A DNA stretch of 64,000 nt from contig CAVXTM010000016.1 of NCBI GenBank assembly GCA_963764725.1, positions 64,001-128,000 on the forward strand, in the 5' to 3' direction. The position numbers were made by a program, and so were the translations under genes. The DNA is from an uncultured Gammaproteobacteria bacterium (GTDB taxonomy: Bacteria > Pseudomonadota > Gammaproteobacteria > JACCXJ01). Shown here piece after piece: positions 20,329-38,550 of this stretch. Numbering within the stretch: position 1 is the stretch's first letter; each line of letters opens with the position of its first letter. The notes under the pieces are model-generated. The model was not told where the DNA came from, ran no database searches, and worked only from the letters and a program-made list of their open reading frames with translations.

Positions 20329-21702
20329 ATGGCGCGAGCGAGAAAGCCGAAAGGCAAGCGGCAAACATTATCGGTGGTTCATCCGAAGGCGGCGGGAATT
20401 GATGTCGGCGCACAGATCCACGTGGTTGCAGTTCCGGTGGAACTGGCAGCGGAGGCGGTGCAAACATTCAAAAGTTTCACCCGCGATCTACATCGACTTG
20501 CTGGTTGGCTAGTTGATCTGGGTATCACAACGGTTGCCATGGAATCGACGGGCGTGTACTGGGTCCCCCTCTTTGAGATATTAGAGAGTCGTGGTATTGA
20601 AGTTCTCTTAGTCAATGCCCGTCACGCCAAAGCGGTCCCTGGGCGCAAGACCGATGTCAATGACGCGCAATGGTTGCAACAACTGCACGCCTGCGGTCTT
20701 TTACGCGGAAGTTTCCATCCCGAGCGGGAGGTGGCTGTTTTACGGGCCTACGTGCGACAACGCGATCGGCTTTCGGACTACGCCGCTTCCCATATTCAAC
20801 ACATGCAGAAAGCGCTGAACCAGATGAATCTGCAGCTGCAGCACGTCGTGACCGACATTACTGGTGCCACGGGGTTGACGATTATCCGTGCCATTGTCGC
20901 TGGAGAACGCGATCCTGCGGTATTGGCAAGTTACCGTGATGTACGCTGTAAGGAATCGGTTGAGGCAATCCGCGAAGCGCTCGTCGGTCACTATCTTCCC
21001 GAGCACGTCTTTGCGCTGCGCCAAGCCCTCGAGCTTTATGATTTCTACCAGCAGCAAATCGCCGCGTGTGATGTGGAGATTGAACAGGCCCTGGCCCGGC
21101 TTGGTCACGGGAGGGAATTACCGGCCACCCCCTTGCCCAAGCCCAAGCATCGAGGTCGTGCACCCAATGCACCGAGATTTGATATTCGCATGGCTCTTTA
21201 TACGGTGGTTGGTACCGACGTGACCCAAATCCACGGGATGGGCCCGCACCTCGCGTTGAAACTCCTGGGAGAATGCGGAACGGACATGTCACGTTGGCTC
21301 AGTGCGAAGCACTTCACCTCCTGGCTAGCGTTGGCGCCCGGGAACAAAATCTCCGGCGGGAAATTATTATCGTCCAGAACGCGTCCCTCATCGAGTCGCG
21401 CTGCGGCGCTCTTACGCCTGGCCGCGACCACCCTTGCCAGAAGCGATACGGCTCTGGGCGCCTTTTACCGCCGCCTTGGCGCGCGGGTGGGTAAAGCCAA
21501 AGCTGTCACCGCCACCGCGCGCAAGCTCGCAGTCTTGTTCTACAATGCCCTGCGCTACGGCCTTGATTACGTTGACCCGGGCGCATCGTACTACGAAGAG
21601 CGCTATCGTCAACGTACGCTCTCGAACCTTCGTCAACGCGCGCGAGCTTTGGGCTTTGAACTCTTACCGCGCACGGAGGAGGCCGTGGCGGGAGTTTCTT
21701 AG
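20329..21702 (+). CDS. IS110 DEDD recombinase
   Basis: GIDVGA, AMESTGVYW, KTDVNDAQWL, NKISGGK. Confidence 0.93.
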   Translation: MARARKPKGKRQTLSVVHPKAAGIDVGAQIHVVAVPVELAAEAVQTFKSFTRDLHRLAGWLVDLGITTVAMESTGVYWVPLFEILESRGIEVLLVNARHAKAVPGRKTDVNDAQWLQQLHACGLLRGSFHPEREVAVLRAYVRQRDRLSDYAASHIQHMQKALNQMNLQLQHVVTDITGATGLTIIRAIVAGERDPAVLASYRDVRCKESVEAIREALVGHYLPEHVFALRQALELYDFYQQQIAACDVEIEQALARLGHGRELPATPLPKPKHRGRAPNAPRFDIRMALYTVVGTDVTQIHGMGPHLALKLLGECGTDMSRWLSAKHFTSWLALAPGNKISGGKLLSSRTRPSSSRAAALLRLAATTLARSDTALGAFYRRLGARVGKAKAVTATARKLAVLFYNALRYGLDYVDPGASYYEERYRQRTLSNLRQRARALGFELLPRTEEAVAGVS

Positions 21703-21742
21703 TCCCTTATCCATGAAATCTTGTGCAAAAAAGCAAAGAGTG

Positions 21743-22829
21743 TCATGCATGAGCGGTATTGAGAGCAGGCATGACCACATACTCTCGGATAGCGAGTGCG
21801 CTGCTGAGCACACGACGACCGAATGTCGTGAGGTAGTACTTGTAGCGATGTCCAATCTTTTTGATGAGGCCATGGGTGCGCAAGCGTTTCAACCAGTAGG
21901 AGGCACGGCCGGTGGAGAGATCCCGGAGATGGGCTCGGAGATCGGAGGCGCGAAAGCCGCTGATGTTCCACTCCCCGCGGGCGAGGGTGATAAAAAGGCT
22001 ATGATCTTCACCGAGGAAGAGATTGAAGCCCCGATAGGAGCGGTCTTTCTCTCGTACAGGTTTGGCCATTTTGTCGATGGCGTGCAGAGCTGCATTGGGG
22101 TTATCGATGCTGGCCATGAAGCTGAGATAGCGTTCATTGGCAGCATGCATCAGCTCTCGCAGATCGGGGAGGCTATAGATGTTTTTTCGCAGGGGTGCGA
22201 GTTTGAATTGCTTGCGCCCATTGCGTTGTTCCACCCAACGGTGGTGTTTGAAGAAGGAGACATCGTTGGCGGTGCATTCCACCCGAGCCATGAGACTGAA
22301 TTTATCGTAGAGCTTGAGGCTTGCTGGTCCCATATGATGGCGGATGCGTGTACCCTGAATGCGGGTGTGAAAATCGTTACCGGCCTCCCCGCTGAAGGCC
22401 GAGGTAAGTTTGCGTCCCAAGAAGGTGGCGACGTGTTCTGCCTTGAGGGCATGCACGGCGGTACGCACGATGGCTTGATAGAGGGGTTGGAAATCGGCTT
22501 GGCGGTGGAAGATGACATCGGTCGAGAAAGCCAGGGCCAGGGAGTGGCCCTGCTTGGCGCGCCGAGGATGCAACTCCACCTGCATGCAGCTCCAGTGATA
22601 ACCAGCGCGAAACTGACCCAAGATAGGACAGAAGCTTTTCGCCCATCGGTCCAAACGCCGATGCAAGCCTTTGGGATCGAGGCTATCGGCAAGCGCCTGA
22701 GCCTGTTGGGGATCGCCGATGGACAAGAAGGCATTATCGGCGCGCTCAAAGGCGATCCCTGTCTTGGTCAGTCGTTGGGCTAACCAGTGATGGCCGTTCA
22801 AATAGACCTGCAGGCGAAACGGTGCCCAG
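21743..22829 (-). pseudogene. 5'-truncated putative transposase of an unclassified element (family usually annotated as MarR-like)
   Basis: NGHHWLAQRL, DNAF, LKLYDK...RVECTANDV, C-terminal wHTH LKRLRTHGLIKKI...YYLT; lies inside the IS cluster. Confidence 0.55.
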
Positions 22830-23724
22830 GTGGGTACTCTGCGACTCGATTATCCGATGAGGCTATTGTGCCGTGTGATGGGGGTTTCGGCCAGTGGCTA
22901 TTATGCGAGGCTTTGCCGTCCGCCCTCGAAGCGATCGAGGGAGGAGGTGCGCTTGAAGGTCGCGATCGGTGCAGCCCATGAACGCACCCGTGGCACCTAT
23001 GGTGCGGAGCGTTTGCAAAAAGAGCTACAAGCCGAAGGTATTCAGGCGGGGGTGGGGCGGATCAAACGCCTTCGCAAGCAGCTTGGGCTATGTTGCAAAC
23101 AACGGCGTAAGTTCAAAGCCACAACCCATTCCAACCATCGGCTGGCGGTTGCAGAGAACCTCCTCGATCAGAATTTTGCAGCGACTCGGCCTAACCAGAT
23201 CTGGGTCGCCGACATCAGCTATGTGCCGACCGATGAGGGCTGGTTATACCTCGCTGCCCTCAAGGACCTCTACACCTGCGAGATCGTCGGCAGAGCGCTC
23301 TCGGAACGCATGAGCAAGGAGCTCGTGGGCCGGGCGCTGATCCAGGCGGTCGCAGCCAAACGCCCAGCGGCAGGGCTGATTCATCATTCTGATCGAGGCA
23401 GTCAATACTGCTCGCATGACTACCGGAAACTCCTCGAGCAATTTGGCATGAAAGCTTCCATGAGCCGCAAAGGCAACTGCTACGACAATGCCCCGGTGGA
23501 GAGTTTCTTCGCCTCGTTAAAAACCGAGCTCGTTTATCATCGGCGCTACCAGACGCGTCGCCAGGCCGTGGCCGAAATCACCGAGTATATCGACCTTTTT
23601 TACAATCGCCAGCGGCGGCATTCGAGACTCGGGTATCTCTCGCCCATGGCTTTCATTATAAAATACTGGGAGAAACGACAGGCAGCTTAAAAGTTATGGC
23701 GTCCACTATTGACAACCGACCTCA
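22830..23724 (+). mobile_element. IS3 OrfB (DDE) with right inverted repeat
   Basis: WVADISY, HHSDRGSQY, GNCYDNAPVESFF; end GGCGTCCACTATTGACAACCGACCTCA. Confidence 0.92.
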
Positions 23725-25730
23725 CCTTTACCTGATAACGAACAAGAGGGTCGGTCGTATCCTGTTTGAACAACTGCCCAAATACTTCATGCGAAATACG
23801 GCTTTGCTCATCGCGGAACGCGCGCTCGCTCCGGAGTTGATCGAGCCGCCGCAGTATTTGCTCAACTAATGCACCCAGCCTGCTGGGAATGGTGTTTTCC
23901 TCAAAGGAAATGCGAAACGCCTGGACGAAATCGTCGTTCGGGCGCGCCAGTAGCTGGTCGAGCACCAACGGGATACCGTGACGACCCCAGCCGTAAAACG
24001 CTTCCGCTGGGATCTCCGTTTCGCGCTCAAGCCTTGCCGCCTGCCGTACCAATTCGATGTGCTCGGGGGGAATGCCGGTTTCGGGGGCGAGAAAAGCTGT
24101 GTCGTCATCCGTCAAGTCGGCGAGTTTAACGCCTTCCAAAACCGGTTCGAGCTCGGCTAGGTGTTCCTCGTATGTGCAAGCCGCGCATGGTTTACAAAAT
24201 AGACCGGGGCGCATGGTTTACAAATTCTCTCCCTGTCCGTGCCATTGGCTGGGAGGGTTGATTTTCTGGTTTCGCTCATTGAGTACACCCAGAAGATGAA
24301 AGCTATAGCGTACTTCCCACAGGAACTCGTCAATCTGGTGCATGCCGATCGGTTCCTTGGCCAGAATGTCTGAGACATAGAGCAGATGGCCTTTCCACTT
24401 GATTTCGCCATTATGTCGCACCCTTCGGACCGTCACCTCAGTCCCATACGCCACTGGCGGCAGCTTCGTGGGATAACTCCTGGGCGAGGCCGTGTACCGT
24501 TCACGAGGTGTTCGCCGTGCCAGCGCTTCATGGCTACGCTCTGCGTTGTACTCGCTGACAAACGCGTTAAAGCGTTGCTGCTGGGCTTCGAGCGTCGCTG
24601 CAGGAGGCGCCACCGCGGCTTCTTTCAACGTCCGATGCATGCGCTCATGTCGGCCATTCTGATCCGGCCGGCCAGGTTCAATGCGCTCGGGACGGATACC
24701 CAGCCGAATCCACCAGGCCGACAGCCGACTCAACCCACCCACCGCCAGCGAGGCAAAGGGGGCGCCGTTGTCGGTCCGTATAGCTTCCGGCAATCCGTAC
24801 TCCCGAAAGACCCATTCGAACCAAGGCTGGACCTCGGCTCACGTCGGTCGTGCCAGACCTCGGCACTGCAAGAGGTAACGGCTGAAGTTGTCCGTCATCG
24901 TCAGCGGGTAACAGCGCCGGCCATCGCCCAGCACGAAATCGCCTTTGAAGTCCGCGCTCCAAAGGGCATTGGCGCCGTCGCAGTGGAGCAACGGCTCGCT
25001 GTGAGGCGCCACCCGCCGACGGCGGCGACGCGGACCCACCAGACCCGCCCGCTTCAGAATCTCACCCGCCGTACTGTCGGCGGGCCAAGCCACCGCGGGA
25101 TCTTCACGGCGCAACCCATCCATCACCTTCTTCGGCCCAAAACGTTGATGCCGCAGTTTGTACTGCACGATTCTTTCGCACAGCGCCGGTTCACTCGCAT
25201 TGGGATGATACTTGGCCGCCCGCGACCACTCCTTGAGCCCATCCAGCCCCAACCGCTGGTACCGCTCAATCCATTTGTCACCTGTCGGGCGACTGATCCC
25301 ATAAAACTCACACAAATTGATCTTGGGGCACTGACCATTCAACCAGTCACCGATAAATTGAACTCGTTGGTCCATCGCACAGGTCTCTTTCCACGGCATT
25401 GGCGTTTCCTCCTCGCCAATACCATAACTGATGTAAACCATGTGCCCGGTTTGTTTTTGTAAAGGATCATACCGGTTTGTACCCCCCCGTTTGGTCGAAG
25501 ATCCGGACGATCAGGTCAGCGGTATGCTTCTCCGCTCTCCGGAATTGTTCGGCCGCATAGGAGATTTGATATTCGCCATTAGTATCGGTAACCGCTTCAC
25601 CCAGGAATTGTTCCGCACGAAGGTCCTTGTCGAATGCACGAATGATATAGCCGCTTAAGTCGAAGACCTCGCCCGAGCGGCTAACCTTACCTCTTACGAT
25701 AAACCGCACGGTGGTTATAACGGAGCTCAT
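23725..25730 (-). pseudogene. N-terminus of a large Tc-toxin-A-like/carboxypeptidase-regulatory-like protein, split by IS481 and IS3
   Basis: IRAFDKDLRAEQFLGEAVTD...ADLIVRIFD (25481-25730) and FLAPETG...IPAEAFYGWGR (23725-24172). Confidence 0.45.
24173..25481 (-). mobile_element. IS481-family element; transposase 24218-25399 has an internal stop at 24839
   Basis: MPWKE, WSADFKG, IRTDNGAPF, QNGRHERMHRTLK; repeated terminal CATGGTTTACA sites at both ends. Confidence 0.88.
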
Positions 25731-25864
25731 ATCGCTACCTCTTGTGGTGGCCTACCGATTACACACGAGAACGGCTCGCAGAGCGCCGCAAGCAGACTAA
25801 GCGACTGGCTGGGCGCTCCGCGTTATAATTAGATGCTCCTATGGTTAGGAAACGAGGTAGCATC

Positions 25865-26065
25865 ATGAAAGTCGCCGATCTCACGGTTGAACAATTGCGA
25901 ACGCTAATCAAGAAAGTCGTGCACGAAGAGTTGCGCGACCTGATGACCGATCCCGATAAGGGACTGGAACTGACCGACGAGATCCAAACACGGCTGCAAG
26001 CGTCCCTGGCCTCCGAAGGCCGGATCTCCTTCGAGGACGTGCAACGAAGGCTGAATCTCGCTTGA
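25865..26065 (+). CDS. Putative antitoxin
   Basis: 66 aa, acidic C-terminus ISFEDV, overlaps a RelE-type toxin. Confidence 0.7.
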   Translation: MKVADLTVEQLRTLIKKVVHEELRDLMTDPDKGLELTDEIQTRLQASLASEGRISFEDVQRRLNLA

Positions 26066-26325
26066 CCTATAACGTCGAGTTCACCTCTCAAGCGCTCGAG
26101 GATCTCTCCCGCCTTGATGCCGCAATCGCCAGACGCATCGCCGAAAAAATCCAGTGGCTCGCCGAGCATTTCGATCAAATCCAAGCCGAGACGCTGACAG
26201 GACGCTTTGCAGGTCTGTTCAAGCTCCGGGTCGGTGACTGGCGCGTACTTTACACGACCGATCCGGCTCAACGCATCATCACGGTTCATGTGATTGCCCA
26301 TCGCAGCAAGGTTTATAAGTCCTGA
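26062..26325 (+). CDS. RelE/ParE family toxin
   Basis: YNVEFTSQALEDLSRL, KLRVGDWRVLY, IAHRSKVY. Confidence 0.88.
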   Translation: MTYNVEFTSQALEDLSRLDAAIARRIAEKIQWLAEHFDQIQAETLTGRFAGLFKLRVGDWRVLYTTDPAQRIITVHVIAHRSKVYKS

Positions 26326-26379
26326 CACGCGTGTGCATCGCGCACCTCACTCAACCTTCATTTCCGTTCGGCAAGGCCT

Positions 26380-26880
26380 CGCCGCTACCGGCCCAATCGA
26401 CCGGCAACCCACCCAGAGGAACGTAGCGGTGGAACGACGAATAAGGCCAATCGTCAATCGTCGCCCCAAACCATGCTTCATAGGATTCCAATGCACGTAA
26501 TCGACGTGCCGGGCGTAATCGGCCTCGTCACGAATGACGTGCTCCCAGAAGCGCTGCCTCCATGCCCCTCGCTCTCCTTCGTCATCCGGACCTTCGAGCG
26601 CCGCTCGGTGCGGGGTAGCGCCTGCACGAATCGTATCTTGATCGCCTCCCAGCGATTGGAGAAATCATCATCGCCCGGCGGCAAGGTCCAAATGCAATGC
26701 AGGTAGTCGGGAAAGACCACCCAGGCGTCGATGTGAAACGGCCGCTCCCGCCGCGTCACTCGCACCGCCTCGCGTAGCGCATCGACATGGCGCACCAGCG
26801 TATCCAGCCGCCGCTCCAACAGGGTTCACCGTAAAGAAATAGGTGCCGCCCAGCACCCGAAAACGTCGATAGTCCAACAT
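26380..26880 (-). pseudogene. REP-associated tyrosine transposase (RAYT), frameshifted
   Basis: YRR...GGTYFFTVN / PFHIDAWVVFPDYLHCIWTLP / RFWEHVIRDEADYARHVDYVHWNP in three frames. Confidence 0.85.
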
Positions 26881-26896
26881 AAAACTCCATACCCGT

Positions 26897-27044
26897 CGTA
26901 GGGCGGAAGCCCGAAGGGTGTTCCGCCAAATGGGATAATCCAAATCAACGGCACGCGATCCATCAAATATGTCTCCCTTCACACTCGGCGGAACCCGCAG
27001 AGCCATTCCCATCCGGCGAAACCCATTTCATGGTTCCGTCTTAC
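26897..27044. repeat. REP-like hairpins flanking the RAYT gene
   Basis: GTAGGGCGGAA...TTCCGCC at 26897-26927, and an inverted degenerate partner GGCGGAACC...GGTTCCGTCTTAC. Confidence 0.65.
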
Positions 27045-27085
27045 GCGGGTTCGGAACGTGGTGGATACCCCGTTCCGCGCGGGAG

Positions 27086-27685
27086 CTACCTACGGGCGCC
27101 TTGATACTTTGGTAGGTTGAGCACCGGCCACTTAGGCGGACTATCTCCGGATATGTCCAGCATTCTCTGCCGATCAGCTTCGCGCGAATCTGCTCGTAGA
27201 AGAAACGGTATATTCCACCCTTTGATTTGGCGACTATACTCGCCAGGATTCACTTCCGTTCCGAATCTGTCTCGCTTTTCAAACTCGTAATAATCACGAA
27301 ACCTACCAAAAACCTTGGTTATCTGTATCTCGACAGTGTCTCCCTTCTCCGAAACGCGCCAAGCATAGTCGGCCTCAACTGTTAGGAGAGCGTGTCCAGA
27401 ACCCCATGCTTGATCCGCACCTCTAGCACCTGGCCACCATCCCTCAGACTGTGCCAGGAATTCTTCGGTAAGGTGAAAATGCTCTATGCCGCTACGTTGG
27501 CCTCGGTGTGCTCTAGCAGCCGCTTCTTCGGTCATGCGGCTCAGGCTTTCTTCCAAGAGTTGTGAGTAGGCTTTACCGCAGCCAGACATTACCCATTCCT
27601 TTTCTACTGTAGAGCTTCCGTCAAGAAGTGTGTAAATAAGTTCAGGCGGCCTTTCTGAGGGTGTCATCATTTTTTCGTATGCCAT
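27086..27685 (-). CDS. Hypothetical protein (possibly the C-terminal remnant of a larger gene)
   Basis: 199-codon ORF with lower GC, adjacent to an IS256 scrap; no family recognised. Confidence 0.45.
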   Translation of the reverse strand: MAYEKMMTPSERPPELIYTLLDGSSTVEKEWVMSGCGKAYSQLLEESLSRMTEEAAARAHRGQRSGIEHFHLTEEFLAQSEGWWPGARGADQAWGSGHALLTVEADYAWRVSEKGDTVEIQITKVFGRFRDYYEFEKRDRFGTEVNPGEYSRQIKGWNIPFLLRADSREADRQRMLDISGDSPPKWPVLNLPKYQGARR

Positions 27686-27714
27686 CGGCGAACGGGATGC
27701 CGCGATAGACTTCT

Positions 27715-27872
27715 TTAAGTAACCCCGCGGCGTTCAATCGGCGGAACGTCGTTTCAGCGACCCTCATGATTTCCAGATCAGCGCGGTGGCGTTCTCGACG
27801 TTCTTGAACCGCTTGGCGGCATCGGTACGCAGCCGTACGGCGGCAAAGGGCGACTCGATCGGGTTAGTGGTC
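27715..27872 (-). pseudogene. IS256 transposase C-terminal fragment
   Basis: TTNPIESPFAAVRLRTDAAKRFKNVENATALIWK. Confidence 0.8.
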
Positions 27873-27906
27873 TGAGGTCGGTTGTCAATAGTGGACGCCA
27901 TAACTT

Positions 27907-28770
27907 TTAAGCTGCCTGTCGTTTCTCCCAGTATTTTATAATGAAAGCCATGGGCGAGAGATACCCGAGTCTCGAATGCCGCCGCTGGCGATTGTAAAAA
28001 AGGTCGATATACTCGGTGATTTCGGCCACGGCCTGGCGACGCGTCTGGTAGCGCCGATGATAAACGAGCTCGGTCTTTAACGTGGCGAAGAAACTCTCCA
28101 CCGGGGCATTGTCGTAGCAGTTGCCTTTGCGGCTCATGGAGGCTTTCATGCCAAATTGCTCGAGGAGTTTCCGGTAGTCATGCGAGCAGTATTGACTGCC
28201 TCGATCAGAATGATGAATCAGCCCTGCCGCTGGGCGTTTGGCTGCGACCGCCTGGATCAGCGCCCGGCCCACGAGCTCCTTGCTCATGCGTTCCGAGAGC
28301 GCTCTGCCGACGATCTCGCAGGTGTAGAGGTCCTTGAGGGCAGCGAGGTATAACCAGCCCTCATCGGTCGGCACATAGCTGATGTCGGCGACCCAGATCT
28401 GGTTAGGCCGAGTCGCTGCAAAATTCTGATCGAGGAGGTTCTCTGCAACCGCCAGCCGATGGTTGGAATGGGTTGTGGCTTTGAACTTACGCCGTTGTTT
28501 GCAACATAGCCCAAGCTGCTTGCGAAGGCGTTTGATCCGCCCCACCCCCGCCTGAATACCTTCGGCTTGTAGCTCTTTTTGCAAACGCTCCGCACCATAG
28601 GTGCCACGGGTGCGTTCATGGGCTGCACCGATCGCGACCTTCAAGCGCACCTCCTCCCTCGATCGCTTCGAGGGCGGACGGCAAAGCCTCGCATAATAGC
28701 CACTGGCCGAAACCCCCATCACACGGCACAATAGCCTCATCGGATAATCGAGTCGCAGAGACCTCATCAA
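27907..28770 (-). CDS. IS3 OrfB transposase
   Basis: Near-identical to 22830-23690. Confidence 0.9.
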   Translation of the reverse strand: MMRSLRLDYPMRLLCRVMGVSASGYYARLCRPPSKRSREEVRLKVAIGAAHERTRGTYGAERLQKELQAEGIQAGVGRIKRLRKQLGLCCKQRRKFKATTHSNHRLAVAENLLDQNFAATRPNQIWVADISYVPTDEGWLYLAALKDLYTCEIVGRALSERMSKELVGRALIQAVAAKRPAAGLIHHSDRGSQYCSHDYRKLLEQFGMKASMSRKGNCYDNAPVESFFATLKTELVYHRRYQTRRQAVAEITEYIDLFYNRQRRHSRLGYLSPMAFIIKYWEKRQAA

Positions 28771-28813
28771 CGCGTACCTCGTAGCGACTCCTTGGCAAAG
28801 TACGCGGTGGCTT

Positions 28814-30425
28814 CCTAAGAAACTCCCGCCACGGCCTCCTCCGTGCGCGGTAAGAGTTCAAAGCCCAAAGCTCGCGCGCGTTGACGAAGGTTCGAGAGCG
28901 TACGTTGACGATAGCGCTCTTCGTAGTACGATGCGCCCGGGTCAACGTAATCAAGGCCGTAGCGCAGGGCATTGTAGAACAAGACTGCGAGCTTGCGCGC
29001 GGTGGCGGTGACAGCTTTGGCTTTACCCACCCGCGCGCCAAGGCGGCGGTAAAAGGCGCCCAGAGCCGTATCGCTTCTGGCAAGGGTGGTCGCGGCCAGG
29101 CGTAAGAGCGCCGCAGCGCGACTCGATGAGGGACGCGTTCTGGACGATAATAATTTCCCGCCGGAGATTTTGTTCCCGGGCGCCAACGCTAGCCAGGAGG
29201 TGAAGTGCTTCGCACTGAGCCAACGTGACATGTCCGTTCCGCATTCTCCCAGGAGTTTCAACGCGAGGTGCGGGCCCATCCCGTGGATTTGGGTCACGTC
29301 GGTACCAACCACCGTATAAAGAGCCATGCGAATATCAAATCTCGGTGCATTGGGTGCACGACCTCGATGCTTGGGCTTGGGCAAGGGGGTGGCCGGTAAT
29401 TCCCTCCCGTGACCAAGCCGGGCCAGGGCCTGTTCAATCTCCACATCACACGCGGCGATTTGCTGCTGGTAGAAATCATAAAGCTCGAGGGCTTGGCGCA
29501 GCGCAAAGACGTGCTCGGGAAGATAGTGACCGACGAGCGCTTCGCGGATTGCCTCAACCGATTCCTTACAGCGTACATCACGGTAACTTGCCAATACCGC
29601 AGGATCGCGTTCTCCAGCGACAATGGCACGGATAATCGTCAACCCCGTGGCACCAGTAATGTCGGTCACGACGTGCTGCAGCTGCAGATTCATCTGGTTC
29701 AGCGCTTTCTGCATGTGTTGAATATGGGAAGCGGCGTAGTCCGAAAGCCGATCGCGTTGTCGCACGTAGGCCCGTAAAACAGCCACCTCCCGCTCGGGAT
29801 GGAAACTTCCGCGTAAAAGACCGCAGGCGTGCAGTTGTTGCAACCATTGCGCGTCATTGACATCGGTCTTGCGCCCAGGGACCGCTTTGGCGTGACGGGC
29901 ATTGACTAAGAGAACTTCAATACCACGACTCTCTAATATCTCAAAGAGGGGGACCCAGTACACGCCCGTCGATTCCATGGCAACCGTTGTGATACCCAGA
30001 TCAACTAGCCAACCAGCAAGTCGATGTAGATCGCGGGTGAAACTTTTGAATGTTTGCACCGCCTCCGCTGCCAGTTCCACCGGAACTGCAACCACGTGGA
30101 TCTGTGCGCCGACATCAATTCCCGCCGCCTTCGGATGAACCACCGATAATGTTTGCCGCTTGCCTTTCGGCTTTCTCGCTCGCGCCATCTTCGTTCTCCA
30201 CCGTTTGCCAAAAGAATCGAAGGGCGGGACGGCGCTCAATCATCACTTTCCTAACCGGGATCACCGAAACGGTGTCACCACTGCCAAGTGCGCTACTGTC
30301 CCTGGACCACGTTTTTTTACGGGGTCAATGCCACCAAAAAGCCAACGGCCGCTCCCTTCGTCCGGGGCAGTATAAAATCACCGGAGTTTCTACTCCTACA
30401 GGTAGTGGGCACGCCCCTTAGAAGG
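28814..30425 (-). mobile_element. IS110-family element, copy 2
   Basis: Removing it restores IS3 OrfA ERDILK(K)ATAYFAKES. Confidence 0.93.
28815..30188 (-). CDS. IS110 DEDD recombinase
   Basis: Translation identical to copy 1. Confidence 0.93.
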   Translation of the reverse strand: MARARKPKGKRQTLSVVHPKAAGIDVGAQIHVVAVPVELAAEAVQTFKSFTRDLHRLAGWLVDLGITTVAMESTGVYWVPLFEILESRGIEVLLVNARHAKAVPGRKTDVNDAQWLQQLHACGLLRGSFHPEREVAVLRAYVRQRDRLSDYAASHIQHMQKALNQMNLQLQHVVTDITGATGLTIIRAIVAGERDPAVLASYRDVRCKESVEAIREALVGHYLPEHVFALRQALELYDFYQQQIAACDVEIEQALARLGHGRELPATPLPKPKHRGRAPNAPRFDIRMALYTVVGTDVTQIHGMGPHLALKLLGECGTDMSRWLSAKHFTSWLALAPGNKISGGKLLSSRTRPSSSRAAALLRLAATTLARSDTALGAFYRRLGARVGKAKAVTATARKLAVLFYNALRYGLDYVDPGASYYEERYRQRTLSNLRQRARALGFELLPRTEEAVAGVS

Positions 30426-32021: not shown

Positions 32022-34241
32022 ATGCACCGTCGCGCCTTGGAGATCCGTCAAGGGCTGCATTCAACCCACCCGGAAGACAGCATGACCGCGATCGAAGTCG
32101 CGGAGAGCCATCGGTCGATCGGCGTCTTACAGCTTCGTATGGGCGCGGCCTCCGAAGCGGAGCAGAGTCTTGAAGCCGCGGTGCATCTCGCGCTGGATCA
32201 CCTCTTCGACCCAGAGGTTTCCGGAGCAGGCAATACGGATCCAGTGCGCACCCCGATGACCATACTGCCAAGAACGGCGGCTCTAACAGTGCTCGCCGAC
32301 TCGCTGTTGAACACTGCGATAGCATCTTGGTCCGAAGAGGCTTCTAACCGAGCCCTGTCCGTTGCGCGTGATCTCGCTTGGGCTAGACCCCTTTCGGCGG
32401 AAGGAAGAACGGCAGATGCCTTCGCGCTTGTTTATCGTGCCCACATCGTTGGGGGTCTTGATCCATCCGAAGCGCTCCAGGATTACCGAAAGGTGAATGC
32501 CTCCTTCGACGAGCTTCTGCGGTGGGATCCTTACAACGATCTCTGGCGGCGCGAATGGGCCGCGACCGGTTTAGTGGTCAGCGAGGGGATTTTGGCCTGC
32601 TTGCAGGATGAACAGCAGCGCTGCAAAAAACTGGCCCCGGATCTCAGGGAAGCAGAGCGTCTGAATCTCGAGGCCATCGAGCAGCTGCGGGTCCTCGCCA
32701 ACAAAGACCCCGGCAACGTGTCGTGGGGAAGCGATTTGGCATGGGCTCTCTCCGTTCGGGCGAAAGTCCTCAAGGAGAAAAAGCAACCGGATGAACGCCT
32801 CTGGGCGCTCGACGAGGCCGTCGAACTCTACACGCAGGCAGCCATGGACCCCAGCGATGTGGACGCCCAGTGGAGCCGGGCGAACGCTCACCGAGACCGG
32901 GCGGCCGCCTTGGCTGACCGGAACAAGACGGGTGCAGCCATCGAAGACCAGCGACGGGCGCGCGAAATCCTCGAAACAGTGGTCAAAGAGCATCCGAGTC
33001 ATCTCGTCTTCCGCGGTGAGCTTGTTCAAACCTTGGACGGAGAGATCGCGCTGCTTCCGAAGAACGGCGATCCAGCCGCCGCCGGCGCGCTCGAACGACA
33101 GAAGAAGGAGCAACAGACAGAATTGGAGCGACTCCAAGCCGTGGACGCAGGGGATAGCTATCAGAACGAAATCTGGACGGAGCAATGGGAGCGAGGGAAG
33201 AAGGCCGAACAGGACAAAAAGTGGGATGCAGCCGTTGACGCCTATCGCGCCGAGATCGAGACTCTCAGGGCAGCGGCGGCCCAAGAACCAAACCGGGCCG
33301 CAGTCTGGTACGCGCTCGCCCAGAAACTTTTCGCCGGAGCGCTGGCTAAAGCAGGGCGAGCAACCGAAAGCGTGAGTGCCTACCGCGAAGGTCTCGACTC
33401 GGCCAAGAAAGCTGCGGAACTCGCTTCAAAGAATGCAAAATACCAGAACCACGTACATGTGGTTCACGTGAATCTCGGGGCCGCCCTTCAGGAGAGCGGC
33501 GATCTCGAGGAGGCCCTGCGCGAGTTTCGTGCTTCCCTGGAACCGCTCAACACCGCGCTTCGACTCGATCCGACAGATGCTCAGTACCACGAGAACGAAA
33601 GCAACGCATACGACTGGATCGCTTCTACCCTCGAGGAACTCAGCCAACGCGAACCGGAACGACCGGATGCCCTGCGGGAAAAACGAGAAACAGCGCTGCA
33701 AAAGAGAGTACACGCGTCGTGGCGCGCCGCTGCGTTTTCGTCCGAGATGGCTAAAGCTAATAACTACCATAACCTGGCCATGGCCCGACGAGGCCTGGCC
33801 CTGTTTCTTTTCACGGAAAAAGATGAAGTGCAGGCAGCACTTAACCTAATGGAGCAAGCCCGATTGGACGTGGAACGTACGGTGGCGCAAGACCCGAGCA
33901 ACCCCAGGTATCATTACTACCTTGGCGACGCAGATATAGCGGTCGGCATATTACGGCGGGAAAATGCTCAGATTGGTGGATGGGAGGAAGCGATCCGTAA
34001 GGGCCTCGTCTCGATCGATCACGCCCTCAGCCTCGCGCCGAAAGAAGCTGTTTATTTGAAGCCTTACGGCGGCTATCGTCAGTATCTCGGCGAGGAACTA
34101 ATCAAAGATCACCGCGTTGAGGCCGGCCGAAAGGAATTGGAACTGGCGCTTTCGGCGTACGAAAAAGCGCAGAAACTTTCGCCGAAAGATCTGGAAATTC
34201 GGGAGGTCATCGAGGCGGTGCGAGTAACGCTGGCGCGGTAG
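32022..34241 (+). CDS. Large tetratricopeptide-repeat protein, probably 5'-truncated
   Basis: 739 aa of TPR-like repeats (DPYNDLWRRE, DPGNVSWGSDLA, DPTDAQYH, DPSNPRYHYYLG); TPR-like coding continues upstream in a shifted frame to the ISL3 junction. Confidence 0.75.
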   Translation: MHRRALEIRQGLHSTHPEDSMTAIEVAESHRSIGVLQLRMGAASEAEQSLEAAVHLALDHLFDPEVSGAGNTDPVRTPMTILPRTAALTVLADSLLNTAIASWSEEASNRALSVARDLAWARPLSAEGRTADAFALVYRAHIVGGLDPSEALQDYRKVNASFDELLRWDPYNDLWRREWAATGLVVSEGILACLQDEQQRCKKLAPDLREAERLNLEAIEQLRVLANKDPGNVSWGSDLAWALSVRAKVLKEKKQPDERLWALDEAVELYTQAAMDPSDVDAQWSRANAHRDRAAALADRNKTGAAIEDQRRAREILETVVKEHPSHLVFRGELVQTLDGEIALLPKNGDPAAAGALERQKKEQQTELERLQAVDAGDSYQNEIWTEQWERGKKAEQDKKWDAAVDAYRAEIETLRAAAAQEPNRAAVWYALAQKLFAGALAKAGRATESVSAYREGLDSAKKAAELASKNAKYQNHVHVVHVNLGAALQESGDLEEALREFRASLEPLNTALRLDPTDAQYHENESNAYDWIASTLEELSQREPERPDALREKRETALQKRVHASWRAAAFSSEMAKANNYHNLAMARRGLALFLFTEKDEVQAALNLMEQARLDVERTVAQDPSNPRYHYYLGDADIAVGILRRENAQIGGWEEAIRKGLVSIDHALSLAPKEAVYLKPYGGYRQYLGEELIKDHRVEAGRKELELALSAYEKAQKLSPKDLEIREVIEAVRVTLAR

Positions 34242-34302: not shown

Positions 34303-34530
34303 GTTAGGTCGAGGATTGGCGCGCACACCGTAGGCGTCGGTGGGTGAATCCAGTGCTTTCACACCGGCCCTCAGTCCGACCATGCCCTAGCCACGTTTCC
34401 AATCCCCGCCACGACAAACCGAGCGTGCCGATTTCCAGCACTCGGCTTTCCGGTTGACTTCATCATGAGGCTTATGTGACCTATCCATCAGCAGCGCTTT
34501 CAGCAACCATGCTTACTCCACCTGCCTTCT
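34303..34530 (-). ncRNA. Group II intron 3' remnant (domains V and VI)
   Basis: AAGCCGAGTGCTGGAAATCGGCACGCTCGGTTT (DV with AGC triad), then GGCGGGGATTGG...CCAATCCTCGACCTAAC. Confidence 0.75.
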
Positions 34531-34798
34531 TGATTGCGGTAAGGTGTCCGGCGGTCCTCGGATCCAGGGACCGAGAGACAGGTGCGGACGTGCCACTCTT
34601 TAGATAACTCGCACCAAGTGTAGCTGCATGCACCGAGTCCGCGCTGACCGCGGCGAGTCGGAGGCGGTGACGAAGCAGCCGTGCTGACTATCAGGACATT
34701 CCGAATAAAACACGACGAGCTCTCGCGCGGACAGGCGTAAAACGCAATGATGGAGAGACATGGGTTGCAGGGTAAAACGCGTAACTACTTGTAATACA

Positions 34799-34854
34799 TG
34801 GCGGAGAGGGAGGGATTCGAACCCCCGGTGAGTTGCCCCACAACGGTTTTCAAG
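34799..34854 (-). pseudogene. 3' half of tRNA-Ser(TGA), att-site relic
   Basis: CTTGAAAACCG...GGTTCGAATCCCTCCCTCTCCGCCA; no 5' anticodon stem or D arm. Confidence 0.8.
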
Positions 34855-35029
34855 CGCGTAGCTGCAAAATTATTTGTTTTTTTATGTCAAGCACTTACAC
34901 GCCTAATTCTTTGATCCCTCGAAAAATAGCGTAACAATGATTAATCATATTGCGTCATTCTGGGTGTGACAAGGTTGTGACAAAAAGACCTTTCCTGACC
35001 TCGCGATCCTCGGACACCGTCCAGAGCGG

Positions 35030-35372
35030 GATCTGCCGCTGCGACCTGGCGTCGGCGCCGAGCTTCGGCAAGCGTTCTGTCAGCACTTTCTCTGCGGCAT
35101 CGAGCGACGCAATATTGATCAGCGCCTGCACGAGGTGCTTCGTGATGACGGGGTCGAAATCGCGCGCGTCCACCCATCGCTGCGCGACGATGCGTGCGTT
35201 ATCGTACTGACGGTTCCTGACCAGCGTCCTTGCCTCGGTCGCCGTAATCGGGCTGCGGCCCGATGTCGGCGACGATCAATTCGACCGCGGCGCCGAGGTC
35301 CCACGGCTGCGCGTCGGGAAACTCGCCGTTCTTGAGTGCCTCGGCCAGCTTCCGTACCGCTTCGCTGTCCAT
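35030..35372 (-). pseudogene. Truncated, frameshifted TPR-like protein (third gene of the TIR operon)
   Basis: ATG 2 nt after the hydrolase stop; LVRNRQYDNARIVAQ...KHLVQALINIASLDAAEKVL. Confidence 0.5.
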
Positions 35373-35374
35373 GG

Positions 35375-36363
35375 TCAGACCTCAAGCGCCTCTCTCAGAT
35401 GCTGGCGCAGCTTCTTGCCGGCGAGATAGTGCGTGATGGTGTGACGCCAGTTGCCCCAGTTCGACTCCTTCACCTCCTCGACGCTCTTGCCGCCGACGGA
35501 CCGATAGTCGTTCGCGAACCTCGGATCGGCGCCGCAGATCGGATCCATCGGATCGTAGATGTTGATCCAGCGCCGCAGGGTGGCCGCTGGGAAATCGACA
35601 GCGTCGCGCCCGGCGGCGATCAACTCCTGCTGCATTTCGCGAACGCCGAGCGGCGAGCCGAGCGTGATCAACGTATCGACCGGCGGGCAGTTGGCGCAGT
35701 TACGCAGCACGTCGTAGGCCACCATGGTCCCCATGCTGTGCGAGACGATGACGACCTTCTCGGCCTGGTTGTGCGCTGACGCCAGGTCGCTCAGCAGGAG
35801 CGAGCGCAACTTCTTGCGCACCTGGAAGCGTTCACCGTCGGCGCGAACGAATTCCTTGTCGAACAGGAAATAGTAGGCCTCCATGGCAGCCTTCTTGATG
35901 ATGGCCTCGCGCACCGGCGACGGCAGCAGTCGCGCGATCTCGCGATCGGCAGGCGCTGCGTCAACCGCCGCGGGCGCGGGCGCCAGTGGCCAGATTGGCG
36001 GCAAGCGAAGCGTTCGAGGAAAGCCTGCTCCCGCGGCGTCACGGCATTCGGCAGCTGCAGATTCGGATCGACGCGGTCGAGTCCCTCGCTCGCGAGCTCA
36101 GCCGACGCATCGCCCTCCTTCTCATAGTACGACCTGAGATCCGTCTCGTAGTTGGTGCCATAGAAGACATCGGCGTAGTAGTTGAGGAAGTGCGGGACAC
36201 CTTCCGTCGCGAGATCGATACCCCCATTCGAAGACGTGAACACAGACGGCATCGGGTCGCCGCGTTCCAACCCCCAGACCCACAGCTCCTTCAGTTTGTC
36301 GGGTGCGGGCTTCTTGGCGAGGCCGTGGCTGAAAATCACGCTGGTAGCACACTTCGCTGGCAT
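35375..36363 (-). pseudogene. Alpha/beta hydrolase (lipase-like) with one frameshift near 36005
   Basis: VIFSHGL, YYADVFY, IVSHSMGT nucleophile elbow, LITLGSPLG, WINIYDPMDPI, terminal His. Confidence 0.75.
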
Positions 36364-36423
36364 GTGAGTTTCTGGATTGAGCTGCCGCACTTCCGCCGCA
36401 ATCGATGGGAGTATGAAATCGCC

Positions 36424-37740
36424 TCAGACCTGATCGCAGTCGGGCAAATGTTCGAACGCCTTGCGCACCAGTGCGCGCTCCTCGGGCGTAGGCTCAAGCT
36501 TCGCCATCAACCGGCACGCCTGTTTCCAGCTCGTCTGGTGCGACCCGGTCTGCGAGCGGGCCATCGCGACGGCAGCGTCGTAAATTCGAGCCGCATCTGC
36601 ATAGTTCTTCTGCATGAGCAGGACTTCGCCGACGGTCGCCGTCATCCAGTACTCGCCCTGGCGCGGCGCGGTACCGACGATCTCTTGGACCCTGGTCGCA
36701 AAATCAGCCGCTCGCTCGAGATCTTCCGGCGTGCCGAGCAGGACGCTTTTCGCCGCTGCGTTGATGCCGGTGTAGTAGTCGTCAGCGGCGAGCCCGAAGG
36801 CTTCCGCGTACAAGTCGCGTGACTGCTTCAAGTCCGGGATTCGATTCGAGCGCTCGTAGTGCTCCATCCAGGTCGAGGCATAGATACCGATCGTCTCCGG
36901 ATCCTTCTCGCCCGACTCGTACAGCTCGCTGACGATATCCTGTGCGGCCAACAGATCCTGTTCCGGCCCGCCACCCCGCGCGCGACGCAGCAGCGCGAGG
37001 GCGCGCAGTTGCTTCGGTCTGATCGCGCGCGGGAATTCCTTCTCGAGCTCCTGCAACATCGCGATCGCCGCATCGTACGCACCGATCTTGGTGAGGCCCT
37101 CCGCGGCCTTGCAGCCCAACGCTGCCGAGACACGCCAGGGCAGGCCGCGCTCGGCGAACAACTGCTGGATACGCTCGGTCCGGCCGTTGCGTATCGCCGC
37201 GCCGATCTGGTCCGCGGCCTTCTTGGACGCCTCGTCGAGGTCGAGCGCGAGGCGCACTGCTTCCTCGCTCATCGGCTGCCCGACCACGGCATGGAGCAGA
37301 CGCAGCAACTCGCCGCCGTTTGGGCCGTCGGGATAGCCGCTGAAATCCATGAAGATCCGCAAGGCGGCGAAGGTGGGGACCTCGGTCTGATCGACCCGCA
37401 CCGGAATGAACCGAAAGGCGCGCTTCTTGCCGCTCGCTTGCTCCATGGTCTGGTATTCGCGGCGCACCCATTCGGAATCACGCGCCTGGCTCGACCACAC
37501 CAGTATCCCCGCCTGGCTCGAGGACAAGGCGTCTTCGAGGCGCGTCACCAATTGATCGCCGCCGACGAGCACACATTGATCGAGAAACACCTTGTGCTTG
37601 TATCTGCGCAGTACGTCGTACAGGTTCAATACCCACGCACGGTTGGCAGATCGATAGGAGAGGAATACGTTCCATTGCTCGCCGCCACTCAAGGGGCGCG
37701 GAGCAGGCACGTGGCTGAGCCATTCTTCTGCAGCGTTCAT
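36424..37740 (-). CDS. TIR domain + TPR-S (MAP3K TRAF-binding/DUF4071-like) protein
   Basis: VFLSYRS, VFLD, SEWVRREY; DPETIGIYASTW, YAEAF...DDYYTGINAA, YWMTATVGE; GGAG RBS. Confidence 0.85.
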   Translation of the reverse strand: MNAAEEWLSHVPAPRPLSGGEQWNVFLSYRSANRAWVLNLYDVLRRYKHKVFLDQCVLVGGDQLVTRLEDALSSSQAGILVWSSQARDSEWVRREYQTMEQASGKKRAFRFIPVRVDQTEVPTFAALRIFMDFSGYPDGPNGGELLRLLHAVVGQPMSEEAVRLALDLDEASKKAADQIGAAIRNGRTERIQQLFAERGLPWRVSAALGCKAAEGLTKIGAYDAAIAMLQELEKEFPRAIRPKQLRALALLRRARGGGPEQDLLAAQDIVSELYESGEKDPETIGIYASTWMEHYERSNRIPDLKQSRDLYAEAFGLAADDYYTGINAAAKSVLLGTPEDLERAADFATRVQEIVGTAPRQGEYWMTATVGEVLLMQKNYADAARIYDAAVAMARSQTGSHQTSWKQACRLMAKLEPTPEERALVRKAFEHLPDCDQV

Positions 37741-38338
37741 TTTGGATTCTCCGGACCTGGAGTCTGCGCCGCGTGTGCAGTAGGCGAGCGCACGCTCGTC
37801 ACTCACGCGATGCTGCGCGCGACCCGGTCACGATGCCCAGATTGAGCCACAACTTGCAGCCCTGACAGTGGACAAAAGTCGCGGTCGGTAAGGGGAAGAG
37901 TACGGATGGACCTGTGGGTTGTCAATGACACGAGCCGTCGGTCCAGGATGCGGGATGTTTCGGGCCCTTCAGCCATCCGAAGCCCGGGGATCCAGGGGTG
38001 TTTTGGCCTCTCGGGCGGGTGCCGGCCGACGGAGGCTGTCGGCTCAGGGAGTGGAACCGGGTGGGAGGGGTGGTACGCTGGGATCAGGCCATTTGAGTCG
38101 GTGGAATGACCGCGCGGGCGATCGGGGCGGTGCCCGGGCGGACAAGCCGAGATGAGTGAGGATCTGGGCGATGACAGGGGGATCTTCGATGGCGGCGATG
38201 ATCTTCAAGAGGCCGCCACATTGGGGCAGTGCTCCAGGTCGAGGCTTGGCTGGGGAGCGTTTGTAAGGACAGCACCTTCTGACCCGCCCGGGGGAAGCCC
38301 AGAGAACGCCGTAGGGGTTAACGCCAAAGGCAGGATAG

Positions 38339-38488
38339 TTTACGGAGCACGACGTACGCGCTAAGTGTGCCTCCGATGCCGAAAGTCTAGAGCATGCGCG
38401 CCAGCTCTTGGCGCACGCAGATTCTCGCTTGACTGCCCGTGTCTATCGCCGCAAACCGGAACTTGTAAAGCCAGGGAAAGGGGTTTGA
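38339..38488 (+). pseudogene. Tyrosine integrase C-terminal remnant
   Basis: FTEHDVRAKCASDAESLEHARQLLAHADSRLTARVYRRKP (HxxR, H and Y), followed by a repeated AATCGTACA. Confidence 0.75.
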
Positions 38489-38550
38489 ATCGTACAAATG
38501 GCGTTTAATCGTACAGGTGCTAAAAAAATATCGCTGTAACTTATTGATTT

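Follow-up and report, generated by a model that had tools for sequence, protein, structure and literature searches.

The three genes A, B and C, which follow each other in this order with short gaps on the minus strand of the window studied here (a stretch of 64,000 nucleotides from contig CAVXTM010000016.1 of an uncultured gammaproteobacterium), raise the question whether they form one conserved system, as the first-pass annotation had it, or separate units that lie side by side. Their common orientation is confirmed throughout. The reading that we favour, at a probability of roughly 0.7, is that of a decayed genomic-island patch beside tRNA-Ser and tRNA-Arg genes, which carries two separable conflict modules, probably of the anti-phage kind, built on the same type of sensor, TPR-S.

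Gene A (36424-37740) is intact and encodes a protein of 438 aa, which is also present in the protein database as a 438-aa protein (P0001). Its TIR domain (residues ~25-135, 37336-37668) matches Pfam TIR_2 (PF13676; 2.2e-22, 80.3 bits against a cut-off of 28), and a TPR-S match (PF20308; 2.5e-12, 47.7 bits against 27.6) covers residues ~221-330 (36751-37080); many homologues carry PF13281 as well. In the AlphaFold2 model (pLDDT 89.5, pTM 0.87) a helical repeat region extends over residues ~142-428. The putative catalytic Glu95 (codon 37456-37458) lies in a W-V-R-R-E motif, is at least 90% conserved among 22 homologues and, in alignments with the Brucella TIRs 4lzp and 4c7m, falls on the Glu of their "WPARELDGL" segment, a residue that we take to be catalytic. 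Both the TIR domain with its conserved Glu and the TPR-S domain had been proposed from the letters of the sequence, and both proposals are borne out by these matches.

Profile matches to the solved TIR NADases BtpA/TcpB (4lzp, 1.6e-10), AbTIR (8g83, 3.2e-07), RUN1 and Roq1 range from 1.6e-10 to 5e-06 and span the TIR core of A including the Glu. These proteins are, however, free or NLR-fused TIRs and not TPR-S fusions as in A. For the TPR-S part no sequence-level match was found in the PDB. The predicted structure of this part can be laid on 5ulm_A with a Foldseek rmsd of 3.8 over 271 columns, which suggests a likeness to the TRAFs-binding TPR region of ASK1/MAP3K (PF13281; PDB 5ulm, 8qgy), although ASK1 is a eukaryotic kinase scaffold without a TIR. 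A is best read, from its domains, as a stand-alone TIR-TPR-S sensor and putative NADase. The C-terminal TPR-S repeats would keep the N-terminal TIR inactive until a trigger is bound; the freed TIR domains would then assemble and cleave NAD+, and either NAD+ depletion or an ADP-ribose-derived signal would halt the infected cell.

The A family is widespread and highly conserved, with 805 homologues, many of them at 60-77% identity, spread over several phyla as given in the locus titles. Over A, the window and near-identical soil-metagenome contigs show 11 differences, 10 of which fall on third codon positions; seven are synonymous, three exchange E for D and one I for V, and the gene appears to be under purifying selection. 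The distribution of A is patchy, like that of horizontally acquired genes. A full-length relative (38% identity) is present in only one of eight genomes of the same genus; relatives were found with the A-family alignment, a scan of the genome contigs with the single A sequence having given none. Searches of PLSDB plasmids and of phage records gave no full-length homologue; Streptomyces plasmids contain matches to the TIR only, and phage records contain none. The patchy distribution is the sole basis on which A may be considered mobile.

Gene B (35375-36363) was called a lipase-fold hydrolase, and the Pfam match to PGAP1 (5.1e-07; weaker ones to Abhydrolase_6, Tle3, LCAT and Lipase_2) together with the nucleophile motif SHSMG (Ser codon 35735-35737) bears this out. 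S212, D272/D275 and H309 are invariant in the family alignment of 20 homologues, as are SHSMG, a YDP.DP motif and WRH, all of which are likewise retained in the C-terminal piece of B in the window. The GxSxG elbow, Asp and His of a PGAP1/lipase-like hydrolase are therefore all present in B, though its ORF is frameshifted. Members of the family share a conserved N-terminal part, a conserved short helix between two variable linkers and a conserved catalytic C-terminal part of ~185 aa.

In the window B is distributed over two frames. The N-terminal piece (35992-36363, profile positions 1-123) starts at ATG 36363, as placed by alignment to the intact homologue of Pseudomonas nabeulensis (L037); the C-terminal piece (35375-35971, profile positions 136-333) carries the catalytic Ser and the Asp and His motifs in another frame. 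Since the 20-sequence profile matches B at 35992-36363 and again at 35378-35971, the net shift must lie within 35971-35992. The single frameshift previously noted at ~36005 was thus placed close to the actual break, but this break may consist of two shifts instead of one.

Gene C (34955-35372) starts at ATG 35372, 2 bases past the stop of B, and is a remnant comprising the first ~120 residues of a TPR-S and trypsin-type protease. Its intact homologues have 544-592 aa and combine TPR-S with Trypsin_2, and the earlier suspicion that the third gene had been a TPR-S-protease fusion proved right. A frame change occurs near 35235-35262, and C ceases to match the intact relatives near 35025, roughly at residue 120 of their 544-592, so that it is both frameshifted and truncated; only the truncation had been noticed before. 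The remnant is left without the WHGIN sensor core and without the entire protease domain. Its cut-off point is abutted by a repeated mobile-element end (34781-34995, minus strand) which includes the 3' half of a tRNA-Ser(TGA)-like gene.

B and C constitute an obligate pair. Wherever a unique metagenome locus extends for 500 bp or more downstream of B, C comes directly after B on the same strand (61 of 61); with a limit of 300 bp the count is 64 of 65. The median gap is 26 nt. Intact pairs are present, for instance, in Povalibacter uvarum and Pseudomonas nabeulensis. In this second module, C would supply the TPR-S sensor together with the trypsin-like protease, and B, encoded just upstream, the lipase-like alpha/beta hydrolase. 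By analogy, B would be a latent zymogen from which the C protease, by cutting the variable linkers, releases a lethal hydrolase. The analogy is drawn from a preprint (bioRxiv 10.1101/2025.11.14.688446), in which an alpha/beta hydrolase beside a sensor-fused protease is described as a zymogen whose cleavage at two sites frees a middle fragment near the lid; the hydrolase studied there, LcHydrolase of Lysobacter capsici AZ78, is processed by a caspase-like protease at R|G sites that are conserved. By description, B resembles it in adjoining a sensor-fused protease at all of the 61 loci and in the middle segment that separates its N- and C-terminal parts, a comparable three-part layout. The pairs differ in that C combines a trypsin-like protease with TPR-S, in contrast to the caspase-like protease of the published module as described there, and in that B-C of the window is a pair of pseudogenes. 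No conserved R-G pair is evident in the linkers of the B family alignment; the trypsin-like protease may cut elsewhere. Complex prediction for intact C with B scored 0.01 against a mark of 0.32, which permits no call either way. If the analogy holds, B-C would extend the logic of protease-licensed hydrolases to a trypsin/TPR-S form.

The sensors of both modules are related. Comparison of the A and C family profiles by hhalign (97.5%, E 4.9e-12) aligns A residues 208-408 with C residues 77-255, which points to a homologous TPR-S sensor shared by A and C; BLASTP of A against an intact C found no match, and the homology is visible by profile-profile comparison only. Fusions of TPR-S with TIR, trypsin, CHAT, alpha/beta hydrolase and patatin domains occur in neighbouring genes. 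It is conceivable, though we advance this only tentatively, that these proteins form a guild in which one sensor fold is mounted on at least five killing or signalling heads (TIR, trypsin, CHAT, alpha/beta hydrolase, patatin) encoded by clustered genes. Co-resident members would then sense the same trigger or co-assemble via TPR-S, and one infection cue would fire several effectors, i.e., NAD+ loss together with a protease-licensed lipase attack. Should this be true, the pair of TPR-S-trypsin and hydrolase would count as an abortive-infection system that is widespread and has not yet been named. In the literature collection searched, no bacterial paper on TPR-S (PF20308), PF13281 or DUF4071 was found, and the term TPR-S is absent from two Aravind-group eLife papers and from PMC9503650.

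No PADLOC system model matches at the locus, in keeping with the initial impression that it corresponds to no named system, but related architectures are already described in two preprints: the zymogen module above and BcTir/Tpr of Bacillus cereus (bioRxiv 10.1101/2023.05.26.542521; operon of OOQ93166.1). According to the latter, BcTpr has 415 aa, a TIR-like N-glycosidase head with catalytic E86 and C-terminal TPRs; the TIR Glu is called catalytic for SARM1 and for E86 of BcTpr alike, BcTpr depletes NAD+, and BcTpr and BcTir together protect E. coli from phages. The same source credits "Tpr core" assemblies to Burroughs and Aravind 2020 and gives their arrangements as solo or with TIR, patatin, LSDAT/SLOG or caspase neighbours. 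A agrees with BcTpr in architecture (438 aa, TIR with E95 and TPR-S, against ~415 aa, TIR-like head with E86 and TPR), the likeness being one of architecture only, and the repertoire of its neighbours agrees with that reported for the "Tpr core". The tested system, as presented there, however needs a second small TIR gene, BcTir, and none adjoins A in the window. By these analogies, A and B-C resemble kinds of anti-phage module that are already described, and the locus is probably not to be regarded as a new system.

Resemblance to other TIR-bearing systems is more distant. A shares with Thoeris a TIR with conserved Glu and weak matches to ThsB models, but its TIR shares one polypeptide with a TPR-S sensor, and all Thoeris model scores are far below the cut-offs (ThcB4, 32 bits against 220). 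No ThsA-type effector (SIR2/SLOG or Macro-TM) was found in A, B, C or the flanks. Likewise, no CD-NTase or pyrimidine cyclase of CBASS or Pycsar is found among the cassette genes, and for CBASS there are only matches of the TIR region to the SAVED-TIR effector model.

Other explanations have to be weighed against two separable modules of which one is decayed. As assembled, B-C is to be read as dead in this genome, B being frameshifted and C frameshifted and cut at the mobile-element junction. Alternatively, B could be intact in reality, with the shift at 35971-35992 an assembly error and C alone dead; the shift indeed sits in a GC-rich repeat coding for Ala and Pro, and many ORFs are split in other MAG-derived loci. 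We consider this rather unlikely, as long nearby genes are whole (alaS with 893 aa, lysC with 439 aa, A, a 739-aa TPR gene and two IS110 transposases of 474 aa), while C carries a second, independent frameshift as well as the structural truncation, upon which decay of its obligate partner B is to be expected. Metagenome contigs offer only GC-rich partial matches of 34 nt with loose ends at 35971-35992 and at the C frameshift, and among the sequencing runs searched the highest share of sampled words was 0.31. A different objection is that the three genes form one integrated system after all, in which A senses infection, its TIR product activates the C protease and C activates B. Such TIR-to-protease signalling has a cited precedent in type IV Thoeris, which is described as a caspase-like protease activated by a TIR signal. 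The A-B-C order with short gaps is common to the window and L037, and A lies just upstream of B in five further loci (L090, L101, L106, L108 and L158). This integrated system is nevertheless quite unlikely, and the idea of one conserved operon cannot be upheld: of 73 genome loci centred on A, only three have B-C nearby and the other 70 lack it, and of 26 loci centred on B that have 1500 bp or more of upstream sequence, A is found upstream of B in four and is missing in 22. Nor is the orientation of A relative to B-C constant, since A and B-C are co-linear in L037, convergent in L001 and divergent in both L033 and L128, and the input domain of C is a TPR-S homologous to the sensor of A and not a known nucleotide-binding domain. 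Moreover, in L037, the only co-linear intact A-B-C locus, Arg replaces the catalytic Glu of the A homologue, which hints that A beside B-C can have a non-catalytic role. A is thus a separable gene and a loose neighbour of B-C. It often stands alone or by patatin, other TIR proteins, CHAT-TPR-S, hydrolase-TPR-S or nSTAND1 genes, and in 11 Acidobacteriaceae loci it is located between dnaX-ybaB-recR and an MFS gene, without B-C. Co-localisation of A and B-C (about 4-15% of loci) is, as judged without a computed background rate, far above chance adjacency, and this non-randomness leaves room for a functional link.

A might also be a Thoeris-like signal generator and not deplete NAD+ self-sufficiently. 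Effectors that other genomes encode close to A (CapV-like patatin, SLOG or SIR2) would respond to its product, and A would be an orphan in this genome. A CapV-like patatin, which matches the PADLOC CBASS phospholipase effector model at 3.9e-45, is one of the two closest ORFs at 21 of the 73 loci and lies no more than 5 kb away at 28; SLOG and SIR2 genes also occur as neighbours, and BcTpr is reported to make a cADPR isomer (bioRxiv 10.1101/2023.05.26.542521). We regard an orphaned generator as possible but doubtful, given that no such effector lies near A at the 11 housekeeping-site loci and many others, that 29 of 78 "core Tpr" operons are counted as solo in the same preprint, and that the patatin loci usually come with a small ThsB-like TIR of their own or with an unknown gene of 184 aa. 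Very unlikely in our view is that the genes are not anti-phage at all and serve instead in circuits for kin discrimination, programmed death or stress in soil bacteria whose lifestyles are complex. It is true that nSTAND1-WD40, CHAT, TIR and pYEATS, which occur among the neighbours, are the repertoire attributed by Aravind-group papers to the conflict systems in which multicellular prokaryotes are enriched, and the lack of full-length A homologues in the phage and plasmid collections fits this view. The only experimental data that the two preprints give on the related architectures, however, show anti-phage activity or protease-licensed cell death, and the patchy occurrence of A among its same-genus genomes likewise speaks against it. 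A conflict or defence character of the neighbourhood does hold: of the 73 loci centred on A, 43 have a gene for TIR/SIR2, patatin, a second TPR-S, CHAT/trypsin, a hydrolase or STAND within two ORFs of A to its left or right.

Under the favoured reading of two separable modules, the locus illustrates the decay of defence cargo, in which the self-contained A survives, apparently under selection, and B-C dies once one partner is cut by a mobile-element junction. The census of loci yields an obligate hydrolase/TPR-S-trypsin pair, a separable TIR-TPR-S unit and a sensor domain common to both, which provide clean and testable units for work on TPR-S sensing.

The flanks are not in every respect as first described. 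The supposed integrase remnant by tRNA-Arg could not be substantiated, PF00589 having no match in 37800-38550; this region is a patchwork of sequence with 14 further occurrences elsewhere in the genome. For the small ORFs at 38044-38275 there is neither a Pfam match nor a tblastn match to plasmids, and their reading as an IS91-type C-terminus was dropped. The tRNA-Ser relic beside the locus is real, its 3' half being located at ~34800-34855 inside the repeated element end, while the true tRNA-Ser(TGA) gene is located in L164. A second copy of the mobile-element end is found elsewhere (G000:C1:54800-55023) at 86% identity.

The three close-set genes on the minus strand at 34955-37740 are members of two kinds of system that have already been described, computationally and in preprints, one of them intact and the other decayed; they do not form a new three-gene system. 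The first-pass annotation had read genes A, B and C as a single candidate defence operon of uncharacterised type between a tRNA-Ser relic and an integrase remnant at tRNA-Arg. Its observation of three genes is confirmed and part of its interpretation stands, while the proposed new system does not. The obligate pairing of B with C and the TPR-S sensor common to A and C are useful and testable by-products.

Gene A (36424-37740, minus strand) is an uninterrupted ORF of 438 aa, whose product is present identically in the protein collection and bears TIR_2 (2.2e-22) and TPR-S (PF20308, 2.5e-12) domains, each beyond the curated Pfam cut-off. The putative catalytic glutamate noticed earlier in the TIR domain was recovered as Glu95 in W-V-R-R-E, conserved at 90% or above among 22 homologues. 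A profile search of solved structures aligned Glu95 to the Glu in WPARELDGL of Brucella TIR chains and also matched AbTIR, PdTIR, RUN1, Roq1 and L6; in all of these we take this position to be the catalytic residue. Near-identical, low-depth soil-metagenome contigs show 11 differences from gene A, 10 at third codon positions; seven are synonymous, and the remainder comprise three E>D changes and one I>V. Judged by its intact ORF, conserved key residues and mostly third-position or synonymous differences, gene A looks functional in this genome. In the BcTir/Tpr preprint (bioRxiv 10.1101/2023.05.26.542521), the corresponding Glu of SARM1 and BcTpr is called catalytic. The TIR profile also matches the N-terminus of PDB 9m0n_A / 9umd (E 6e-04), an 824-aa chain entitled 'Tetratricopeptide repeat protein' that is a solved TIR-TPR protein of a different family from A.

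Gene B begins 60 bases downstream of A (ATG 36363, stop 35375, minus strand) and encodes, by Pfam, a PGAP1/lipase-like alpha/beta hydrolase with the nucleophile motif SHSMG. The gene is broken over two frames: 35992-36363 corresponds to positions 1-123 of a profile from 20 intact homologues, and 35378-35971 to positions 136-333, which places the lesion in 35971-35992, within a GC-rich stretch coding for Ala and Pro; by three-frame translation, two single shifts may be present instead of one. The family layout comprises a conserved N-terminal part, a conserved helix (TPRE.AFL..FEAKL) between two variable linkers and a conserved catalytic part of ~185 aa, and as assembled the frameshift falls in the second linker. 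Gene C (minus strand) starts at ATG 35372, two bases past the B stop, changes frame near 35235-35262 and loses its likeness to relatives near 35025, ~120 residues in; the homology gives out where a repeated element end of ~200 nt starts, at ~34995. Intact C relatives from Pseudomonas nabeulensis (L037), Povalibacter uvarum (L001) and a deltaproteobacterial MAG (L033) are 544-592 aa long, with an N-terminal TPR-S and a C-terminal Trypsin_2 peptidase domain with conserved His, Asp and Ser motifs, which bears out the suggestion that the third gene was once a TPR-S-protease fusion. The stub in the window is without the sensor core and the entire protease. As assembled, B-C is dead in this genome, and the B profile found no second copy of B there.

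These same three genome loci hold intact B and C relatives beside an A relative, in the order and strand of the window in L037, with B-C convergent with A in L001 and divergent from it in L033. Relatives of A in the database number 805 (E <= 0.001), and the best 120 are ~430-510 aa long and 60-77% identical. A pattern scan, with one genome per species, gave 73 A-centred loci, assigned by their titles to Acidobacteriota, Bacteroidota, Pseudomonadota, Verrucomicrobiota, Actinomycetota, Gemmatimonadota, Planctomycetota and others; tblastn (1e-3) places a relative of B or C in just 3 of them. B has 552 relatives of ~333 aa, and scanning metagenomes with an alignment of 20 sequences yielded 80 B-centred loci, reduced to 76 by removing four with identical B DNA. 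C lies downstream of B on the same strand in every one of the 61 loci that extend 500 bp or more past B, and in 64 of the 65 that extend at least 300 bp, the sole miss having just 438 bp; the median gap in metagenome loci is 26 nt. An A relative is found upstream of B in 4 of the 26 loci that reach 1500 bp or more in that direction, and any A-like match in 6/76, one on the opposite strand. Further neighbours of B-C include TIR, nSTAND1(-WD40), ParA-like AAA_31-TIR and other TPR-S proteins. Since C follows B in 61 of 61 loci and A stands beside B-C rarely, B-C is an obligate two-gene unit and A a separate one, which joins it in only some of the loci, the orientation differing between them; the frequencies of 3/73 and 4/26 speak against one three-gene system. 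The co-localisation of A with B-C is nevertheless real and probably above chance adjacency, and a functional tie between the two may exist.

In L037:8001-9305, the sole co-linear intact A-B-C locus, the A homologue (P0045) has 'KCVVSRY' for the usual 'EWVRREY', which replaces the conserved Trp as well as the catalytic Glu, the latter by Arg; this homologue could play a scaffolding role.

To tally the surroundings of A in the 73 loci, the two closest ORFs that reach 100 aa were taken on either side, using naive longest ORFs that were clustered, with Pfam run on one representative per cluster. Patatin is near A in 21 loci, another TIR, SIR2 or DUF4062 protein in 17, a second TPR-S protein (headed by CHAT, Abhydrolase_6, patatin or trypsin) in 14, a CHAT or trypsin protease in 10, an alpha/beta hydrolase in nine and an nSTAND1 and/or WD40 giant protein in nine; at least one of these kinds is present in 43. 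In 11 Acidobacteriaceae MAGs (L009-L013, L048, L050, L054, L064, L065, L070) A always occupies the same site, flanked by dnaX-ybaB-recR on one side and an MFS transporter gene on the other, with no recognisable partner in these loci, and the fixed site suggests vertical retention within the family. Split ORFs are numerous in several of these loci, probably through assembly indels. In Bacteroidota (L036:6220-7939, L046:7016-7983 and ~15 more loci), a CapV-like patatin and a 184-aa protein, at times with a 135-aa ThsB-like TIR, lie upstream of A. The 184-aa protein, of no assigned identity, accompanies A in 17/73 loci, and no cyclase was seen in these patatin loci; the set is a candidate TIR-signal-activated phospholipase system. 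Downstream of A in 9/73 loci (L025:9334-12046 and eight others), a 238-aa uncharacterised protein directly precedes a CHAT + TPR-S protease (~650 aa), apparently a further pairing of a protease with an effector of uncharacterised kind.

BLASTP detects no similarity between A and C. Profile-profile comparison aligns residues 208-408 of A with residues 77-255 of C at 97.5% probability (E 4.9e-12), pairing YYTGINAAAK with WHGIN and DYWMTATVGE with D.W..ATA.EA. A confident AlphaFold2 model of A (pLDDT 89.5, pTM 0.87) has a beta-alpha TIR fold with helical repeats behind it. Among the Foldseek matches of the repeat region, the ASK1 central regulatory region (5ulm_A, rmsd 3.8 over 271 columns; also 8qgy) is the most specific, consistent with the PF13281 label borne by many A homologues. 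Elsewhere in the source genome, a 451-aa MAP3K_TRAF_bd/TPR-S protein (G000:C13:72942-74297; L168:805-2160) matches a PADLOC TIR effector model at its N-terminus (3.6e-08), and contig C4 carries a TPR-S + patatin fusion (L169:1327-3294).

PADLOC gave generic TIR-region matches only for A (best PDC-S66, 8.6e-09), none for the B and C pieces of the window or for an intact B relative, and matches through the protease domain alone for an intact C relative; the patatin neighbour of A matched the CBASS phospholipase effector model (3.9e-45). The Thoeris and retron-TIR models of NCBIfam score far under their cut-offs. The closest counterpart of A is matched by architecture and neighbourhood: BcTpr, as presented in its preprint, is a protein of 415 aa that joins a TIR-like glycosidase head (residues 1-189, catalytic E86) to a C-terminal TPR. 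It depletes NAD+ with a cADPR isomer as product and, acting with BcTir, a small TIR protein, defends E. coli against T phages (bioRxiv 10.1101/2023.05.26.542521). The same text credits the "Tpr core" to Burroughs and Aravind 2020. Of the 78 operons that it counts, 29 are solo and 28 include TIR, while the others have YspA, patatin, LSDAT, calcineurin or caspase; this repertoire is also that seen around A. For B-C, a second preprint (bioRxiv 10.1101/2025.11.14.688446) describes an alpha/beta-hydrolase gene beside a sensor-fused protease gene. That hydrolase, nearest to lipases and oligopeptidases by HHpred, is a zymogen cut at two sites into fragments of 8.1, 4.7 and 19.8 kDa, and co-expression of its N and C fragments kills cells. 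B has a comparable three-part layout with a helix between variable linkers, whereas its partner is trypsin-like and the published one caspase-like; no conserved R-G site was seen in the B family alignment.

The domains, the gene linkage, the common sensor and the lesions are shown directly; the mechanisms of A and of B-C we infer. A would be a one-protein sensor-effector, in which trigger binding by TPR-S would release or assemble the TIR domains for NAD+ cleavage. In intact B-C, the sensor-protease C would cut the latent lipase-like hydrolase B and thereby license it, the two modules presumably acting in parallel and not in series.

The tRNA-Ser relic proved real: the element end beyond C (34781-34995, minus strand) closes with the 3' half of a gene resembling tRNA-Ser(TGA), and within it are two TGTCACA repeats, a TGATTAATCA palindrome and a box similar to TTGACA. 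Its second copy (G000:C1:54800-55023) lies ~30 kb from the true tRNA-Ser(TGA) (L164:1469-1556) and may delimit an island on that contig. Very short metagenome unitigs from four soil runs of two studies match 34900-34984 at depths of 60-260. The supposed integrase remnant was not recovered, as PF00589 matches at 16 places in the genome and at none in 37800-38550; the stretch from A to tRNA-Arg (37810-38550) is a patchwork of pieces recurring at 14 other genome places with 69-97% identity, and its small ORFs have no Pfam match. A was not found in seven of eight same-genus genomes searched (the tally takes in the unpublished G005, G008, G009, G010 and G014), the eighth, G008, having a full-length relative of 38% identity. 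Just past the island junk, a 739-aa protein (32022-34241, plus strand) consists of TPR repeats only, with no enzymatic domain found. Mobile DNA abounds around the locus. At 34330-34450 (minus strand) Rfam domain V/VI (44.9 bits; gathering score 40) marks a group II intron, a 3' fragment since there is no space upstream for a full one. Two IS110-family transposase genes (both 474 aa, on opposite strands) and two IS3 transposase (rve) genes (286 and 287 aa, on opposite strands) within 20278-30239 flank ~5 kb of ORFs without a Pfam match, an arrangement that may represent a composite or inverted-duplication structure.
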